Assembly: GCA_001773385.1 (NCBI GenBank) | Contig: MEWJ01000020.1 | Span: 1-57,171 of the forward strand | Direction: 5' to 3' | From: a candidate division WWE3 bacterium RIFOXYD1_FULL_43_17 | GTDB taxonomy: Bacteria > Patescibacteriota > WWE3 > UBA101185 > UBA10185 | DNA: 57,171 bases | Shown here: piece by piece, positions 33,007-38,696 of the stretch | How the letters are laid out: each line of letters begins with the position of its first letter | Position numbering within the stretch: position 1 is the first letter of the stretch | Translations under genes and position numbers: made by a program | Notes under the pieces: generated by a model | What the model saw: only the letters and a program-made list of their open reading frames with translations | Told to the model about the DNA's origin: nothing | Databases searched by the model: none

Positions 33007-34068
33007 TTACTGCCCCCATCCATCCCTACTCAACTCCGCTGCATTAAAAAGTCCTCCAACGACCCTGCCCCACCCATACACCCACAACGTAATCCAACAA
33101 GCTACAGGATGAAAAAACCACGCAACATCATTCTTTTTTAAAAACCCGGCAAAACTCTGCACCACCACCGGCACAATCAAAACAGTAAACACCACAAACT
33201 TCACCATCCCCCACGGCTTCTTTCCACCCAAATCCAAATCGCCCCATCCGAACTCCCTGTCGCGACTTTTCAAATGAAACAGATAGTCTTTCACACGCCT
33301 TCTCTGTTTTCTCGCAAACTTTCCCACGTCACTTCCGCAAAAAGTATGGATAATTCCATTTTTAACTTTAATAAACTTCACGGAACCTTTTTCCTTAATT
33401 TCCTTAGCCAATATATCTATGTCGAACAAGTAATCGCCTTTAACCCTGCTTTTTAAAAATTCTGTTCTGAACACAGTTCCGTTTGCGCCGATTGTAGGTA
33501 CTCCTCTTTTGTCCAAACCCAGCAACAAATAATCTCCGAAATCTTTCTCATCGTGTTCAACCCCGGTCCATTTACCGGTTAACAAATTAACTCTGTCGTA
33601 ATTACCCAAAAACATCACAAGCGGATCGTTCATTCCGATTAGAGCGCAGTATCTGTCTATAAATCCGTCTTCTTTTCTCCAAACATATTTCCAGGGTTCG
33701 CTGCCCGCAGCTTCAGTATGTTTCAACAAAGGTCCCACCATCTGCCACAACCAACCACTATCGGGCAAAATATTATCCGAGTCAATAAGCGCAACAAATT
33801 CTCCGTGCGCAACACTTAGAGCAACGGCCTTTCCGGCCTCTCCCGTTTTTAATTTATTCTCAACAACAACTGCCTCATACTTTTTTGCAATTTCTAACGT
33901 TCCGTCTGTAGAGCCACCGTCAGCTACAATAATTTCAATTTTTTCTTTGGGATAGTTTTGCATTTTCACTGATTCCAGACAGTTTTTTAAAACTGAAGAT
34001 GCATTTAGAGTCGGTATTAATATGGATATTGTGGGGGTTCCGGACGTTTCTTCAGACTTGATTTCCAT
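33007..34068 (-). CDS. GT2-family glycosyltransferase with C-terminal helices
   Basis: 353 aa. ISILIPTLNAS, VADGGSTDGT and IDSDNILP. Hydrophobic C-terminus. Confidence 0.8.
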   Translation of the reverse strand: MEIKSEETSGTPTISILIPTLNASSVLKNCLESVKMQNYPKEKIEIIVADGGSTDGTLEIAKKYEAVVVENKLKTGEAGKAVALSVAHGEFVALIDSDNILPDSGWLWQMVGPLLKHTEAAGSEPWKYVWRKEDGFIDRYCALIGMNDPLVMFLGNYDRVNLLTGKWTGVEHDEKDFGDYLLLGLDKRGVPTIGANGTVFRTEFLKSRVKGDYLFDIDILAKEIKEKGSVKFIKVKNGIIHTFCGSDVGKFARKQRRRVKDYLFHLKSRDREFGWGDLDLGGKKPWGMVKFVVFTVLIVPVVVQSFAGFLKKNDVAWFFHPVACWITLWVYGWGRVVGGLFNAAELSRDGWGQ

Positions 34069-34072
34069 TTTT

Positions 34073-34732
34073 TTATTGTACTACAACGGTGGGCTTTTCA
34101 GCCTTTGCCACAAGAGTTTGGCTTAAAAAGGAAATAAAGTGGGGCGGTTGGGCAATTCTGTATTTAACCGTCACCGGATGGTAAAGACCTAACCAAAAAC
34201 CTTTTACCTGAGCTTTGGAAAATCCGGATTTACTAAAAAGCGTTTCGATAGACCGCTTTGTGTACTCCCTTAAATGAATACAGTCACCGAGAAGTTCATC
34301 TTTTCCAAGTAACATGGGAAACTCCGGAAATTTTCCGGTAGCCAAAGTCCGCAGCCATCTTCCTATCCTGAATAAATTGGGCGTAAAGACGTAGGCTGTA
34401 CCCCCGGGCTTTAATACGCGGTACATTTCGTTTACAAAGGTTAGGTCGTCCTCAACATGTTCCAGCACGTCAAAATTTATAACAATGTCAAAGGAGTTAT
34501 CAGGAAAACTTAAATTGTCCTTTTTCGTAATGTTAAAAGAAAATGAATTTTTGTTTCCGGGCTTTCTTCCGTCAATGATGTCGCAGGCCGAAACCTTTGC
34601 TCCGCGTTTTACCAACTCCGAAGTGGTATCTCCGCTGCCGCATCCTATATCTAAAACATTTTTGTTCTTGAAATCTATTTTGTCTAAAAATTTGAGAAAA
34701 TCCAGATAGTAGTAATCGGTCTTCATTTCCAT
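34073..34732 (-). CDS. Class I SAM-dependent methyltransferase
   Basis: 219 aa. VLDIGCGSGDTT, FDIVINFDVLEHV and LKPGGTAYVFTPN. First gene of the 34732-to-19794 minus-strand run. Confidence 0.8.
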   Translation of the reverse strand: MEMKTDYYYLDFLKFLDKIDFKNKNVLDIGCGSGDTTSELVKRGAKVSACDIIDGRKPGNKNSFSFNITKKDNLSFPDNSFDIVINFDVLEHVEDDLTFVNEMYRVLKPGGTAYVFTPNLFRIGRWLRTLATGKFPEFPMLLGKDELLGDCIHLREYTKRSIETLFSKSGFSKAQVKGFWLGLYHPVTVKYRIAQPPHFISFLSQTLVAKAEKPTVVVQ

Positions 34733-34738
34733 TTTTCC

Positions 34739-34744
34739 ATTGTA
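34739..34744 (-). promoter_or_regulatory. -10-like hexamer 6 nt upstream of ATG 34732
   Basis: The minus strand reads TACAAT then GGAAAA then ATG. The -35 is poor. Overlaps the plus-strand -35 of the island promoter. Confidence 0.25.
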
Positions 34745-34769
34745 CTACCGTACCCGCTTTTGCTATACT
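34740..34769 (+). promoter_or_regulatory. Sigma70-like promoter for the first island unit
   Basis: TTGTAC (34740-34745), 18-nt spacer, TATACT (34764-34769). Gives a ~28-nt leader to ATG 34804. Confidence 0.3.
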
Positions 34770-34803: not shown

Positions 34804-35049
34804 ATGTACGATTTTTTCTTCTTTACGTTAGAGGCATTTTGTATAGCACTGGAACGACTGCGCAAGAGCGACCGGAGTTGGTACCACTGCTCCGAAAAGC
34901 TCATTATCAGCTTTCACGAGGGCTGTGACGCCGATTTCCTGATAGGCGAGCTTGCATTATCGGGAGTATCGGGTTGCTCTTACAGACTTGAACGTCCGGA
35001 CAGGAAGAAGGGAGGAACTGAATTCAAGGGTCACGTACGGATCGAGTAA
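34804..35049 (+). CDS. Hypothetical 81-aa protein (island ORF A); the region could instead be a non-coding leader
   Basis: ATG preceded by AAGGGAGGG 3 nt upstream. No recognisable motif. Overlaps the upstream TTG-start extension (34952..35098) of the 35099 reading frame. Confidence 0.3.
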   Translation: MYDFFFFTLEAFCIALERLRKSDRSWYHCSEKLIISFHEGCDADFLIGELALSGVSGCSYRLERPDRKKGGTEFKGHVRIE

Positions 35050-35098: not shown

Positions 35099-35320
35099 AT
35101 GTATTTATATTTTGGTTCGCCCGATGATTTGCGCAGAGCAATGAAAGTCGGGGAAAAGGTGCACGTGTTTGAAAGTCAGCACTACACCGTAGACGCGGAA
35201 AAAAACCGGATAACTTTTGACTGTGATTATCCGGAAAAAGTCCGCGCCTTTATAGCAGCTCTGAAGCACGTTAACTCCTGCCCTGACAGGCAGCCCATCT
35301 GCTTTAACCCGGCTCACTAG
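35099..35320 (+). CDS. Hypothetical 73-aa protein (island ORF B)
   Basis: Internal ATG of ORF 34952..35320, directly preceded by AAGGGAGGAA. Followed by strong terminator 35345..35381. No recognisable motif. Confidence 0.45.
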   Translation: MYLYFGSPDDLRRAMKVGEKVHVFESQHYTVDAEKNRITFDCDYPEKVRAFIAALKHVNSCPDRQPICFNPAH

Positions 35321-35344: not shown

Positions 35345-35381
35345 GCCCGTTGTTTTTACCAAAATACAACGGGCCTTTTTT
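35345..35381 (+). terminator. Rho-independent terminator ending the first island transcription unit
   Basis: GCCCGTTGT (35345-35353) pairs with ACAACGGGC (35366-35374), followed by CTTTTTT. Confidence 0.7.
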
Positions 35382-35402: not shown

Positions 35403-35431
35403 TTGAAAATACCCCACCATGCTGTTAGAAT
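35403..35431 (+). promoter_or_regulatory. Near-consensus sigma70-like promoter for the second island unit
   Basis: TTGAAA (35403-35408), 17-nt spacer ending in TGt, TAGAAT (35426-35431). Gives a ~33-nt leader with an SD before ATG 35471. Confidence 0.5.
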
Positions 35432-35470: not shown

Positions 35471-35779
35471 ATGGACGGTGTAATCAGGCTGTTGAGAGAC
35501 GGCGAGTTCGGCTATATCCGCGGACAAGAAATCTGTAAAAGCAGCGACTGTGAGTTTTATGTAAACAGAACCACAGTATGTTACCAAAACCAAACTGATA
35601 CCCACAATATTATGGTTAAACGGTGCGGAGAGTATCTTCACGCAGCGACATCCGATATCGACGATGCTGCTTGTGCCGAAGTGACGCCGGAACAACTCTT
35701 AACCAGGGACTATATTCCGGTAATAAAGGACGACGGATATCTATCCAAAGGGTTCGAACCATACATAACAAGGGGGTGA
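35471..35779 (+). CDS. Hypothetical 102-aa Cys-containing protein (island ORF C)
   Basis: Internal ATG of ORF 35435..35779, preceded by AAGGAGAG 6 nt upstream. Lies downstream of the predicted promoter 35403..35431, so ATG 35435 would fall upstream of the TSS. N-terminus GVIRLLRDGEFGYIRG. Confidence 0.5.
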   Translation: MDGVIRLLRDGEFGYIRGQEICKSSDCEFYVNRTTVCYQNQTDTHNIMVKRCGEYLHAATSDIDDAACAEVTPEQLLTRDYIPVIKDDGYLSKGFEPYITRG

Positions 35780-35780
35780 C

Positions 35781-36023
35781 ATGAAACACTTTTTGTCCCG
35801 CGATAATGCGCTGACTGCCAAAGAGCATGTTCTTAAACTACTCAGAACTGAAGGATACAAAACAGAGTGTCTGGAAATCACTATTATTAAGGACAGGCAG
35901 GGGTTCTTCATCGAAGCATTGTCTGAAACAGACCCGCAAATGGTGAACCGCTTCAGGCACCTGTTCCGTGAATACATAAGAACGCTCAGGTCACGGATAA
36001 CAGTTCAGGTCGACGAAGGATGA
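35781..36023 (+). CDS. Hypothetical 80-aa protein (island ORF D)
   Basis: ATG lies 1 nt after the ORF C stop, with GGGGG 4 nt upstream. No recognisable motif. Confidence 0.55.
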   Translation: MKHFLSRDNALTAKEHVLKLLRTEGYKTECLEITIIKDRQGFFIEALSETDPQMVNRFRHLFREYIRTLRSRITVQVDEG

Positions 36024-36026
36024 GCC

Positions 36027-36320
36027 ATGAAATACAAGCTGAAGGACCTTCCCAGGAATACTGTGGCGTTCGCTTCTCCCAAAGCGTTGCTGGTCTACAA
36101 AGGTGGCTTGTACATAAACGTTAAAGCGGAAGTGACCCTGACATGTAACCCGGCAACCGGAAAAACAATGCGGGTAAGAGTTATGGACAAGAAAGCGATA
36201 ATCGCCAGCTGCACCATACCTCACGACCTTGAGGTTCCGGTACTCGATAACTGGGTCATAGTAGGCATGAGTTTCTGTCCGGCTGAGATAGAAAAAAGCG
36301 ATGTCGGATATTCAAACTAG
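36027..36320 (+). CDS. Hypothetical 97-aa protein (island ORF E), paralog of ORF F
   Basis: ATG lies 3 nt after the ORF D stop, with a GAAGGA SD. Shares LP.N...F.SP.......G.L.IN and V.VG..F.P.AE blocks with 36337..36645. Confidence 0.55.
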   Translation: MKYKLKDLPRNTVAFASPKALLVYKGGLYINVKAEVTLTCNPATGKTMRVRVMDKKAIIASCTIPHDLEVPVLDNWVIVGMSFCPAEIEKSDVGYSN

Positions 36321-36336
36321 GGGAAAGGAGGAAAAA

Positions 36337-36645
36337 ATGACGGACAGGCCAAGTGTTAGGATGTCTCTATTAGAGCTACCTACAAATTGGAGGGTTTTCG
36401 TTTCACCGGGGTCGTTTTATAAGAGTGGTGGCAGATTGTTTATAAATCCCAACTCTCAAATAAACGTTAAACCTGATCGAAACTGCGTTGTTCAAGTTAC
36501 CCGCCTGGAACAAGGTTTTTTGGTAAATATGAGCACATTGCCAAGGAATCTGAGGTACATGGAAGTCACCGAAAAAGTCACCGTCGGAAATAACTTCATA
36601 CCGCTGGCTGAAGAGGGGTTATTTAAGATTGTCGACTCCTTGTGA
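36337..36645 (+). CDS. Hypothetical 102-aa protein (island ORF F), paralog of ORF E
   Basis: Internal ATG of ORF 36301..36645, with a perfect AGGAGG 5 nt upstream and no overlap with the ORF E stop. Followed by hairpin 36655..36689 and a T-tract. Confidence 0.55.
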   Translation: MTDRPSVRMSLLELPTNWRVFVSPGSFYKSGGRLFINPNSQINVKPDRNCVVQVTRLEQGFLVNMSTLPRNLRYMEVTEKVTVGNNFIPLAEEGLFKIVDSL

Positions 36646-36654
36646 AAATGCTCA

Positions 36655-36696
36655 GAGCCGCGACGTTTAATAAAATAAACCCGCGGCTTACTTTTT
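36655..36696 (+). terminator. Putative terminator ending the second island transcription unit
   Basis: GAGCCGCG (36655-36662) pairs with CGCGGCTT (36682-36689, terminal G-U). The 19-nt A/T-rich loop is long. Followed by ACTTTTT. Confidence 0.45.
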
Positions 36697-36699
36697 ACT

Positions 36700-36792
36700 A
36701 AATGCGTATTCTACTTTTGTACTCAAATGCGTACTCTACTTTTGTACTCAAATGAGCACCACTTTTTCTAAATGAGTGCTCTACTCTTTTTT
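36700..36792. repeat. Four head-to-tail 20-25-nt direct repeats in the convergent intergenic region
   Basis: Units: AAATGCGTATTCTACTTTTGTACTC (36700-36724), AAATGCGTACTCTACTTTTGTACTC (36725-36749, 1 mismatch), AAATGAGCACCACTTTTTCT (36750-36769), AAATGAGTGCTCTACTCTTTTTT (36770-36792). The last unit overlaps the radical SAM stop codon. GAGCAC (36754) and GTGCTC (36776) form an inverted pair. Confidence 0.6.
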
Positions 36793-38391
36793 AGCAGCAG
36801 CACTTCCGAACATACTCTTGATTGCGTTTCCCCAAAACTTCGGAGAGATCCAATTAACGCGTGTTTGTTCTTTATCAAAGTCCAGTAAGTGCCCTATTAA
36901 CTTCCACGCAGAATAACCTAAAAATTTGATGTCACTCCAATTTCTTATAGACAATATTTTTCTAAAAATATACTGAGGAGTAAAAAAAGAAGAATACAAA
37001 GATTGGGTCAACTCGTACAACCGTTCGTTTGAAAAAGGTATTTTCATAACCGGAGCTCTCATATCAAACTTCTCGTAGTCCTTCGCACCGACCTGCAACC
37101 AATCATTTTCCAAACACTCTTTGTATAAAGGAGTTCCGGGATAAGGAATCACGATTGTTGCCTGCATGGTATCTACATAGCCTTTTTTAAATAAGTCTTT
37201 CGCCAAATCTATGGTGTTCTGAGCCATTTCTTCGGTTTCCCACGGATACCCAAGCATTACCGTAACATGAGGCTCCAATCCTGCCTTTTTGGCCATTTTG
37301 GCACCTTCTGCAATCTCTTCTACCAGTAAGCCCTTATCCAGCCTATCCAAAGTGACCTGGTTCGCCGACTCCATCCCGTACAAAATAAATCTAAAGTTGG
37401 CTTTGCCCATTAAGTCATAATATTCTGAGGTAAGTGCGTTCAAACGCATATTACATCCGAAAACAACTTTTTTGTTATACCCGGACTCAATTAACAGCTC
37501 GCAGAACTTTTTCAAAGGTGGGCCGATGAATAAAGTTCCCGCGTCATCAAATATTTCTTTTACTCCGTAGTTGTCGACGACATGTTTTACCTCGGCAAAA
37601 AGTCTTTCAGGAGAAAATCTTCTGTAAAATCCTTTGGGATTTAAAGTATGATCCCAAACACAAAATGTACATCTGTTCCACCAACAATCTCTGCCTGAAT
37701 ACATGTAGGTCGCCGGTGTGTATTTATAATTCCCGTTCGCATACGCGTAAAGTTTCCATTTCGTAAGGTCGCGGTCAACAAATGGAAGATCATCGAGGTT
37801 GTGCTGTAACTCCAAAGGACCGCTCTGGAAGTACGCTTCTTCTCCGGTTATTCCGGATTTGTGCAGTTTTAGCCACTTAGGATCTACCGATACTTTCGGG
37901 TCTCCTTTTCTTCCGTAAATTCCTCCGGGTAAGTAGCTATTGTTCTTTATCGCATCGGCCATGTCGCTTAAAAGAAAATCGTAATCACCACCTGTGATTA
38001 TGTAGTCGACCTTACAGGCATCCAGCGTTTCTATGGGGTTCCATGTAACGTGGTCCCCTACCAAAATCACCGCCATCTCCGGAAATTTTTCTTTTAGTTC
38101 GTCGATAATTTTCCAGTGAAACTTCAAAACCGGTGCTTTGGTCTCCATCATCAGATAATCGGGCTTTTCTTTTTCCAGCTCTGACAGCCATTCCGTGTAA
38201 GTTTTCTTCTCGGCTATACCGTCACTCCAGACCACGTCGTATCCGCGTTCTTTGGCCAGAGAGGCCGCGTACGCCGGAACCATGGGGTAAATGTATGTGG
38301 GAGCGTTGAAATACTGAAACTGCCTGTTCTGGGATAATAAAGGAACTCCTTTGTACTGGTCTATTGGAGGATACCCGATAAGAATTTTCAC
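36781..38391 (-). CDS. B12-binding-domain radical SAM enzyme (class B type)
   Basis: 536 aa with a GTG start. N-terminal Rossmann-like cobalamin-binding-type region (DYLMMETK, VILVGDHVTWNP, IITGGDYDF). Cluster motif SGRDCWWNRCTFCVW. Downstream IFDDAGTLF and FILYGMESANQ resemble the radical SAM core. Confidence 0.75.
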   Translation of the reverse strand: MKILIGYPPIDQYKGVPLLSQNRQFQYFNAPTYIYPMVPAYAASLAKERGYDVVWSDGIAEKKTYTEWLSELEKEKPDYLMMETKAPVLKFHWKIIDELKEKFPEMAVILVGDHVTWNPIETLDACKVDYIITGGDYDFLLSDMADAIKNNSYLPGGIYGRKGDPKVSVDPKWLKLHKSGITGEEAYFQSGPLELQHNLDDLPFVDRDLTKWKLYAYANGNYKYTPATYMYSGRDCWWNRCTFCVWDHTLNPKGFYRRFSPERLFAEVKHVVDNYGVKEIFDDAGTLFIGPPLKKFCELLIESGYNKKVVFGCNMRLNALTSEYYDLMGKANFRFILYGMESANQVTLDRLDKGLLVEEIAEGAKMAKKAGLEPHVTVMLGYPWETEEMAQNTIDLAKDLFKKGYVDTMQATIVIPYPGTPLYKECLENDWLQVGAKDYEKFDMRAPVMKIPFSNERLYELTQSLYSSFFTPQYIFRKILSIRNWSDIKFLGYSAWKLIGHLLDFDKEQTRVNWISPKFWGNAIKSMFGSAAAKKE

Positions 38392-38438: not shown

Positions 38439-38696
38439 TTATTTCTTCTCAGGATAGAGTACGTTGCCTTCCAGATCTTCAACAATTATCGCAGTAGTGG
38501 GACAGGACTTCGCCCCTTTTATAATTTTTTCAGCTTCATCCCACGTACCTTCTTTCGCGTACACAATTCCATCGGAGTCGAGGTCAAAAGTTTCGGGCGC
38601 GTGAATTATGCAGGTCGCCGCACTTATGCACAGCTCATTTATAACTTTAATAATTACTTTCGAGTTTGGATTTTTATATGTAACTACTTCTTTCAT
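38439..38696 (-). CDS. Small single-cluster ferredoxin (3Fe-4S/4Fe-4S type)
   Basis: 85 aa. CISAATCIIHAPETFDLDSDG ... SCPTTAI fits the C-x5-C...CP pattern of small ferredoxins that serve as redox partners. Confidence 0.7.
   Translation of the reverse strand: MKEVVTYKNPNSKVIIKVINELCISAATCIIHAPETFDLDSDGIVYAKEGTWDEAEKIIKGAKSCPTTAIIVEDLEGNVLYPEKK

Follow-up and report, generated by a model that had tools for sequence, protein, structure and literature searches.

Small paralogous genes lying beside a B12-binding radical S-adenosylmethionine (SAM) gene are known from the precursor arrays of ribosomally synthesized and post-translationally modified peptides (RiPPs) of the proteusin/polytheonamide type, which are served by a B12 radical SAM C-methyltransferase (TIGR03975-type). 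A stretch of 57,171 nt from the candidate division WWE3 bacterium RIFOXYD1_FULL_43_17 (contig MEWJ01000020.1; herein referred to as the window) bears an outward likeness to such arrays, because two small + strand genes, E (36027-36320) and F (36337-36645), lie in tandem next to a B12 radical SAM gene; however, the WWE3 genes differ in that they converge on the radical SAM gene across a terminator, encode what are predicted to be folded domains of ~100 aa, and adjoin an HpnJ-like enzyme that belongs to a glycan operon. Here, we describe E and F as members of a family of three paralogs within a six-gene cassette (A-F), and we weigh what the cassette might do.

Orphan small-protein families are common in genomes of the candidate phyla radiation (CPR), and the family found here is, as it stands, one among many such lineage-specific orphan families. 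The value of describing it is mainly one of delimitation: three paralogs, a six-gene cassette with conserved signals, a fixed position in a glycan locus, and a predicted fold without a solved relative.

Three paralogs and their distribution

Both E (97 aa) and F (102 aa) are present on the + strand as listed in the initial annotation, with one correction: the start of F, given there as 36301, is most likely the ATG at 36337, which is preceded by a GGAGG ribosome-binding site in AAAGGAGGAAAAA and gives the 102-aa form found in public gene calls. With this start, E and F do not overlap. The motifs that had been read by eye (L..LP.N...F.SP.......G.L.IN, (T/S)(I/L)P..(D/N)L and V.VG..F.P) are all found in the sequence, and the tandem paralogy that they suggested is real by BLASTP (25% identity over 85 residues, E=1e-8), by a shuffle test (Smith-Waterman score of 80, compared with 24.1 +/- 4.3 for 2000 shuffles, none of which reaches 80; z=13), and by hhalign comparison of the profiles of E and F orthologs (98.8% probability, E=9e-17). 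From these alignments, we take E and F to be true duplicates that arose by tandem duplication.

The description of E and F as a tandem of two, sound as to their paralogy, overlooked both the cassette and a third, more distant paralog. Gene C (35471-35779, + strand; 102 aa) matches F in profile comparison (hhalign, 81.8% probability, E=1.1e-5, 83 columns), and in the divergent metagenome locus L042, the C protein matches the F-like protein directly by BLASTP (E=5e-9). Indeed, AlphaFold2 (AF2) models of C and F present their secondary-structure elements in identical order, and homology among C, E, and F is full-length and collinear, which places C within the family; no further copies were found in the window.

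A neighbor-joining tree pairs the E clade with the F clade as sisters and leaves the F-like proteins of the divergent loci L020 and L042 outside both, which indicates that the split between C and F is old and that the duplication that produced E and F is younger. Consistent with its being the younger duplicate of F, E is confined to a WWE3 subclade (the window and L022, L023, L024, and L036) and is not found in L011, L020, or L042, whereas F is the universal member of the family, with orthologs in all loci examined. Judged from the tree, E was lost later in the L011 lineage. One copy of E within the window population is disturbed: in L010 (ERZ28563735 scaffold_3367, 2160-2450, equivalent to ~36027-36320), E is called as 66 aa only, and the region has 10 mismatches upstream, an alignment that breaks at approximately 36200-36275 of the window, and an inverted segment of 52 nt. 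This disruption is either an assembly artifact or a population variant.

It had also been proposed that each protein carries an internal half-repeat. Two homologous half-domains within E and F are not supported, as the proposal failed every test: in neither protein do alignments of N-terminal with C-terminal halves score above the shuffle mean, profile comparison of the halves covers just the 12-column LP.N/T.P motif (0.5% probability, E=0.12), the first (N-terminal) LP.N motif is not conserved in E orthologs, in divergent F proteins, or in C, and the predicted secondary structures of the two halves are unlike each other.

As far as can be read from their sequences, C, E, and F are soluble, beta-rich proteins with a single domain of ~100 residues, and their family is restricted to one lineage. 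Neither a signal peptide nor a hydrophobic segment can be discerned in the family sequences, and neither catalytic features nor a known domain was found in them. In the E/F family, Ser-Pro and Thr-x-Pro positions show little or no variation, and the isoelectric points (pI) of E/F orthologs range from 4.4 to 10.1. The charged surface is hence not conserved, which argues against a conserved nucleic-acid-binding surface.

The family is narrowly distributed. A word-indexed search returned the window's two proteins as the only matches; an exhaustive hidden Markov model (HMM) search of 1.84 billion (1.84e9) representatives returned 8 clusters, of which all with a readable genomic context lie in WWE3; and a second profile search returned 13 proteins at 90% clustering, of which the named ones belong to WWE3 metagenome-assembled genomes (MAGs) or to the "Patescibacteria" MAG KatS3mg101. 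Among 185,579 species genomes in GTDB, the family occurs in those of four WWE3 species, one of them the complete genome RAAC2_WWE3_1, and a metagenome scan gave 14 loci, with the same layout in those that were read. All loci with a named organism belong to WWE3 (Katanobacteria, CPR), except for the one MAG labeled just Patescibacteria. Proteins identical to those of the window occur in GCA_000997025.1 (LCBF01000006) and in many Rifle groundwater assemblies. The ten loci with an identical F (L001-L010) are ~100% identical to the window and represent one clonal population, and hence contribute no comparative signal.

The family matched no common known domain family: searches of A-F and of 15 E/F members against Pfam, PHROGs, PADLOC, and NCBIfam gave nothing consistent, and sequence-profile searches of the Protein Data Bank (PDB) with A, B, C, D, and E/F gave no match. 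As no described family matches it, the family is new.

A six-gene cassette with its own signals

Genes C, E, and F belong to a block of small + strand genes that interrupts ~50 kb of - strand glycosyltransferase, methyltransferase, flippase, and PMT_2 genes. The other three genes each represent an orphan family. Gene A (34804-35049, + strand), the first of the cassette, encodes 81 aa beginning MYDFFFFT and has orthologs that occupy the corresponding position in 5 further WWE3 loci (24-79% identity; ratio of nonsynonymous to synonymous substitution rates, dN/dS, 0.15-0.21), with no match in Pfam, PHROG, PADLOC, NCBIfam, or the PDB. Gene B (35099-35320, + strand; 73 aa from the ATG at 35099, with the sequence FGSPDDLRRAM) has orthologs in all loci examined, including the divergent L020 and L042 (dN/dS 0.10-0.26) and no database match. 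Gene D (35781-36023, + strand; 80 aa), a small alpha/beta orphan, starts 1 nt past the stop of C; its orthologs share 56-67% identity, it shows no relation to C, E, or F in profile comparison, and it has no database or PDB match. Profile comparison of A with B gives a weak match (E=0.007, 36 columns), and we do not claim a relationship among A, B, and D.

These families occur in conserved order across WWE3 species, with F always last, and their complement varies. The window, L022, and L024 carry A-F; L036 carries A, B, C, E, and F, with D not called with an ATG start; C is lost from L023; E is absent from L011; L020 retains B, C, and F only; and L042 has an A-like gene, X, B, C, and an F-like gene and lacks D and E. 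Extra genes lie upstream of A in L022 (4699-5361; WWE3 RIFOXYB1_FULL_43_24), L042 (5535-5765), and L043 (5528-5755). They comprise an additional A-like and an additional B-like gene (A' and B' in L022, which also has X) and a small family that we term X (74-76 aa), with the motif ...EGY(I/L)(I/V)D...G(S/T)(E/D)(R/K)DT..FK..L...GIP(F/Y)G. The extra copies indicate that A and B have been duplicated too.

The cassette is divided by conserved transcription signals. A terminator-like hairpin with a T-run, read from the sequence (35345-35381, + strand; GCCCGTTGT...ACAACGGGC CTTTTTT), ends the A-B unit; it was missed by the consensus terminator scan, its loop being 12 nt, and this hairpin and its T-run are kept downstream of B in 6 species. 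Upstream of C is a promoter-like site with a TG extension (35403-35431, + strand; TTGAAA-17-TAGAAT), of which the -35 and TGTTAGAAT elements (TTGAAA-17-TGTTAGAAT) are conserved in 6 species together with the downstream ribosome-binding site AAGGAGAG; the promoter persists in L023 despite the loss of C. Genes C-D, D-E, and E-F are spaced by 1, 3, and 16 nt. Finally, a hairpin with a T-run (GAGCCGCG...CGCGGCTT) lies at 36655-36696, where F and the radical SAM gene converge; its GC-rich stem of 8 bp is kept in 8 species, with one compensatory change from G-C to A-U, and it is probably a two-way terminator. The conserved promoter, ribosome-binding site, and terminators, together with the tight spacing, indicate that C-D-E-F is one transcription unit insulated from the radical SAM operon. 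The architecture of the cassette is A-B, terminator, promoter, C-D-E-F, terminator, and it is autonomous.

Between the terminator of F and the stop of the radical SAM gene lies a 25-nt tandem repeat (TACTTTTGTACTCAAATGCGTACTC; 2.7 copies, 36689-36754), the top-scoring tandem repeat in the window, with more degenerate copies beyond. Within the window population, the region is shorter by ~31 nt in L001 and by ~21 nt in L003, where the missing bases take in part of the terminator hairpin, and other species are without the 25-nt repeat. No RNA family in Rfam was found in the window.

The cassette proteins evolve rapidly. Over the same genome pairs, the radical SAM enzyme shows 82-91% identity (dN 0.05-0.12) and its companion ferredoxin 84-93% (dN 0.03-0.10), whereas proteins A-F show 31-79% (dN 0.11-0.85). 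E and F are 31-55% identical between species in which the radical SAM enzyme is 82-91% identical. The rate of change in the cassette proteins is thus ~4-15 times that of the flanking genes, and copies have been gained and lost. Where the synonymous rate (dS) can be estimated, dN/dS across the cassette is 0.10-0.46, and most dS values are saturated; for E, the ratio is 0.15-0.25. These values were obtained from pairs of orthologs, since E and F, at 25% identity, are far beyond saturation with respect to each other. The low ratios indicate that the cassette consists of genuine coding genes under purifying selection.

Rapid change, together with small size, the lack of database matches, and loss in some lineages, is what would be expected if E and F were non-functional, either open reading frames (ORFs) that arose by chance or remnants in decay, within intergenic or antisense DNA. 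This we hold to be extremely unlikely. Orthologous ORFs remain intact despite saturated synonymous sites (dN/dS 0.12-0.46), ribosome-binding sites, promoter, and terminators are conserved, the paralogy is significant, and the AF2 models of F and C are compact or well scored. A non-coding or artifactual origin is accordingly rejected on the evidence of selection and of conserved signals; E and F are, on their sequences, real protein genes, co-transcribed as the operon signals would have it.

A mobile element is likewise rejected as an account of the cassette, in the vicinity of which there is no tRNA, integrase, or flanking repeat, and which occupies an identical position in all species.

The glycan locus and the radical SAM neighbor

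Nearly the entire 57-kb window (1-57171) is one - strand run of GT1, GT2, and GT10 glycosyltransferases, SAM methyltransferases, Polysacc_synt flippases, and PMT_2 (GT-C) proteins. All loci of sufficient length have the cassette convergent to the same block: F is followed by a B12-binding radical SAM gene of 533-537 aa and then by genes for an 85-aa ferredoxin, two GT2 proteins, a flippase, and PMT_2; the gene order of the metagenome loci is identical wherever the contig extends far enough. In the window, the radical SAM enzyme (36781-38391, - strand; 536 aa) contains only the Radical_SAM and B12-binding domains of Pfam, and the single-cluster ferredoxin (38439-38696, - strand; 85 aa) is paired with it in the glycosylation operon. 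Both are unusually conserved across WWE3 (82-93% identity). The best NCBIfam match of the enzyme is HpnJ (E=7.5e-45), yet far under the cut-off, and its substrate is presumably a sugar or a lipid-linked glycan.

The position of this enzyme led the initial annotation to recall RiPP precursor arrays. E, F, and perhaps C would then be substrates of the B12 radical SAM enzyme, as precursors, either RiPP-like or proteins, that undergo methylation or another modification and then, possibly, processing. The radical SAM gene and its ferredoxin do adjoin F in every locus, the enzyme has weak NCBIfam matches to RiPP C-methyltransferase families (E=1e-12 to 1e-16, far under the cut-offs), several paralogous small genes in a row look like a precursor array, and the Ser-Pro and Thr-x-Pro positions are near-invariant. 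Nevertheless, F (+ strand) and the radical SAM gene (- strand) converge on a hairpin and T-run that is kept in 8 species, and the HpnJ-like enzyme is co-oriented with glycosyltransferases, flippase, and PMT_2, which suggests a sugar or lipid substrate. The small proteins have no division into leader and core; their conserved positions are spread across ~95 aligned columns and they are predicted to be globular (mean predicted local distance difference test, pLDDT, ~80). No RiPP recognition element (RRE), SPASM or twitch domain, protease, or exporter was seen beside the genes, where the neighbors encode glycosyltransferases and methyltransferases, and conservation of the enzyme at ~90% contrasts with identities of 31-55% among the supposed substrates. 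We therefore regard a precursor role as very unlikely, and adjacency to a radical SAM gene is here no evidence of a RiPP cluster.

The same setting could be read differently, with the cassette as an accessory or regulatory module dedicated to the glycan pathway and C, E, and F as adaptor or chaperone-like subunits that bind the radical SAM enzyme, a glycosyltransferase, or the flippase, without any link to phages. In keeping with this, the conserved block next to the cassette is strictly the same in every lineage, the divergent L020 and L042 among them, the cassette marks the point where the variable part of the glycan locus meets the conserved part, and WWE3 genomes have been noted for abundant glycosyltransferases (PMC3812714). 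However, partners that are ~90% conserved should constrain their binders, and C, E, and F evolve ~4-15 times faster; the cassette is opposite in orientation and has its own promoter and terminators; its members are dispensable in some lineages; and the linkage, observed in one clade only, may be mere inherited order. A dedicated glycan module is hence a possibility that we consider, but an unlikely one.

Several further features of the locus surround the cassette. In several species (L011 4364-4804, L017 3199-3630, and L020 4923-5354), its left neighbor is a conserved membrane protein of 143-146 aa with the His/Asp motifs DLDHLLDYFIH, HSWE, and HL.WD; the window and L023 have a methyltransferase in its place. 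This swap of left neighbors indicates that the cassette stands at the border between variable and conserved parts of the glycan locus. Farther away, G+C content falls to 0.33-0.38 across 20-33 kb, compared with ~0.42 elsewhere in the window, which suggests that this sub-block of the glycan locus is variable or was acquired. Two - strand genes to the left of the cassette, a GT2 gene (33007-34068) and a methyltransferase gene (34073-34732), are alike in their 5' ends and in the upstream 17 nt: 34052-34084 and 34716-34748 share 85% identity over 33 nt and read GTAGTACAAT..AAAAATGGAAAT on the - strand, a translation-start region common to both genes in which the ATG is preceded, at a distance of a few bases, by a TACAAT box.

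Predicted fold, possible role and known relatives

The AF2 model of F, which comprises 8 strands and one helix, agrees with the beta-rich structure expected from the alternating V/I residues of these proteins. It is a fair, compact model (pLDDT 79.8, predicted TM-score 0.70), as is fair the model of C (83.1 and 0.73), which was made with database protein sequences. The compactness of the model of F, together with conservation along the whole length of the proteins, also supports the earlier argument that they are folded domains.

Foldseek comparison of the F and C models with the PDB found no neighbor (best E 0.6, TM <0.3). Against BFVD, a collection of predicted viral structures, F matched four uncharacterized phage proteins, the best being A0A1I9SAK7 of Rhodococcus phage Weasels2 (E=2.4e-4, TM 0.63) and U5PXJ5 of Clavibacter phage CN1A (E=0.12, TM 0.62/0.65, root mean square deviation 3.2), both comparisons being between predicted structures. 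From length and motifs, U5PXJ5 is probably CN1A gp69, the sole coding sequence of 95 aa in the CN1A genome, and A0A1I9SAK7 is probably Weasels2 gp235, one of two 131-aa coding sequences there. In hhalign comparison with the family, gp235 gives E=1.4e-4 and CN1A gp69 a marginal E=0.069. Their family-HMM scores beat those of composition-preserving shuffles in 1000/1000 cases for gp235 and in 997-1000/1000 for CN1A gp69, whereas a control, Weasels2 gp69 (the other 131-aa protein), scores like its own shuffles. CN1A gp69 is placed in phrog_34264 (function unknown), to which none of 15 E/F members matches (0 matches), and gp235 is an ORFan without a PHROG. A tblastn search of phage genomes with F returned Rhodococcus phage Trina gp028 only (E=0.6), which we reject as a chance match. 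A remote relationship of the C/E/F family to actinophage orphan accessory proteins, as suggested by these models and profile scores, is plausible but unproven.

We hypothesize that the three paralogs C, E, and F serve as small binding subunits in an accessory module that evolves fast and is possibly related to phages; this is the best overall explanation of the locus, and one that we consider probable without being assured of it. The three proteins would be neither enzymes nor peptide precursors and would probably act by binding, most likely assembling with one another, as tightly coupled paralogous subunits of an operon often do. The small alpha/beta partners A, B, and D may join them in one module, the role of which could be tied to the surface-glycan locus or to conflict between phage and host, for example, as a domesticated phage-type module.

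Several observations weigh against this hypothesis. Models of defense systems match none of A-F (PADLOC defense-protein HMMs give no match at E<=1), viral contigs of IMG/VR hold no relatives of F, D, or B, and no integrase, tRNA, or flanking repeats that would speak for a phage or defense role were found around the cassette. The cassette has apparently been inherited vertically at one site, although dS is saturated, and this speaks against its having come recently from a mobile element or a phage. The likeness to phage proteins consists of predicted ORFan structures and marginal sequence scores, with gene identities that are themselves deduced. Rapid evolution might just mean weak constraint on small proteins, and as all comparative loci lie in one narrow clade, the cassette may adjoin the glycan block through inheritance of the gene order rather than through functional coupling.

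A bolder version of the hypothesis would have C, E, and F represent an undescribed fold and superfamily common to CPR bacteria and actinophages, with the cassette a domesticated phage accessory module whose paralogs diversify in an arms race and whose hetero-oligomeric products modulate the glycan machinery or block phages. We think this quite doubtful. Ultra-small episymbiotic bacteria rarely carry CRISPR or classical defense systems, and if the phage link and a role in glycan control or phage resistance were true, the family would provide a handle on how such bacteria deal with phages, as well as a new small-protein fold.

Two groups of known proteins can be set beside the family. Cold-shock and OB-like proteins resemble it in being small and beta-rich, and C has, by eye, an N-terminal strand motif of the "G(F/Y)I" type; they differ in that Foldseek gives no PDB match to an OB or cold-shock domain (CSD) fold and pI is not conserved in the WWE3 family, for which there is also no match above threshold to the CSD or S1 domains of Pfam (one family member has an E-value of 0.14 to the S1-like domain of CvfB). 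The actinophage proteins gp235 and CN1A gp69 come nearer. They too are small and soluble, with a similar predicted fold, and share with the WWE3 proteins the motifs L.(E/N)LP...(Y/F).(V/S)P...G..(F/Y)(I/L).P, V...(T/R)R.E.GF.V, and (Y/F)IP(V/L); however, neither was recovered by HMM searches begun from the WWE3 family. Both sit in runs of small hypothetical non-structural genes, and they are phage-encoded, single-copy, and found in phages with hosts among the Actinobacteria, whereas the WWE3 genes are chromosomal, form three paralogs, and belong to the CPR.

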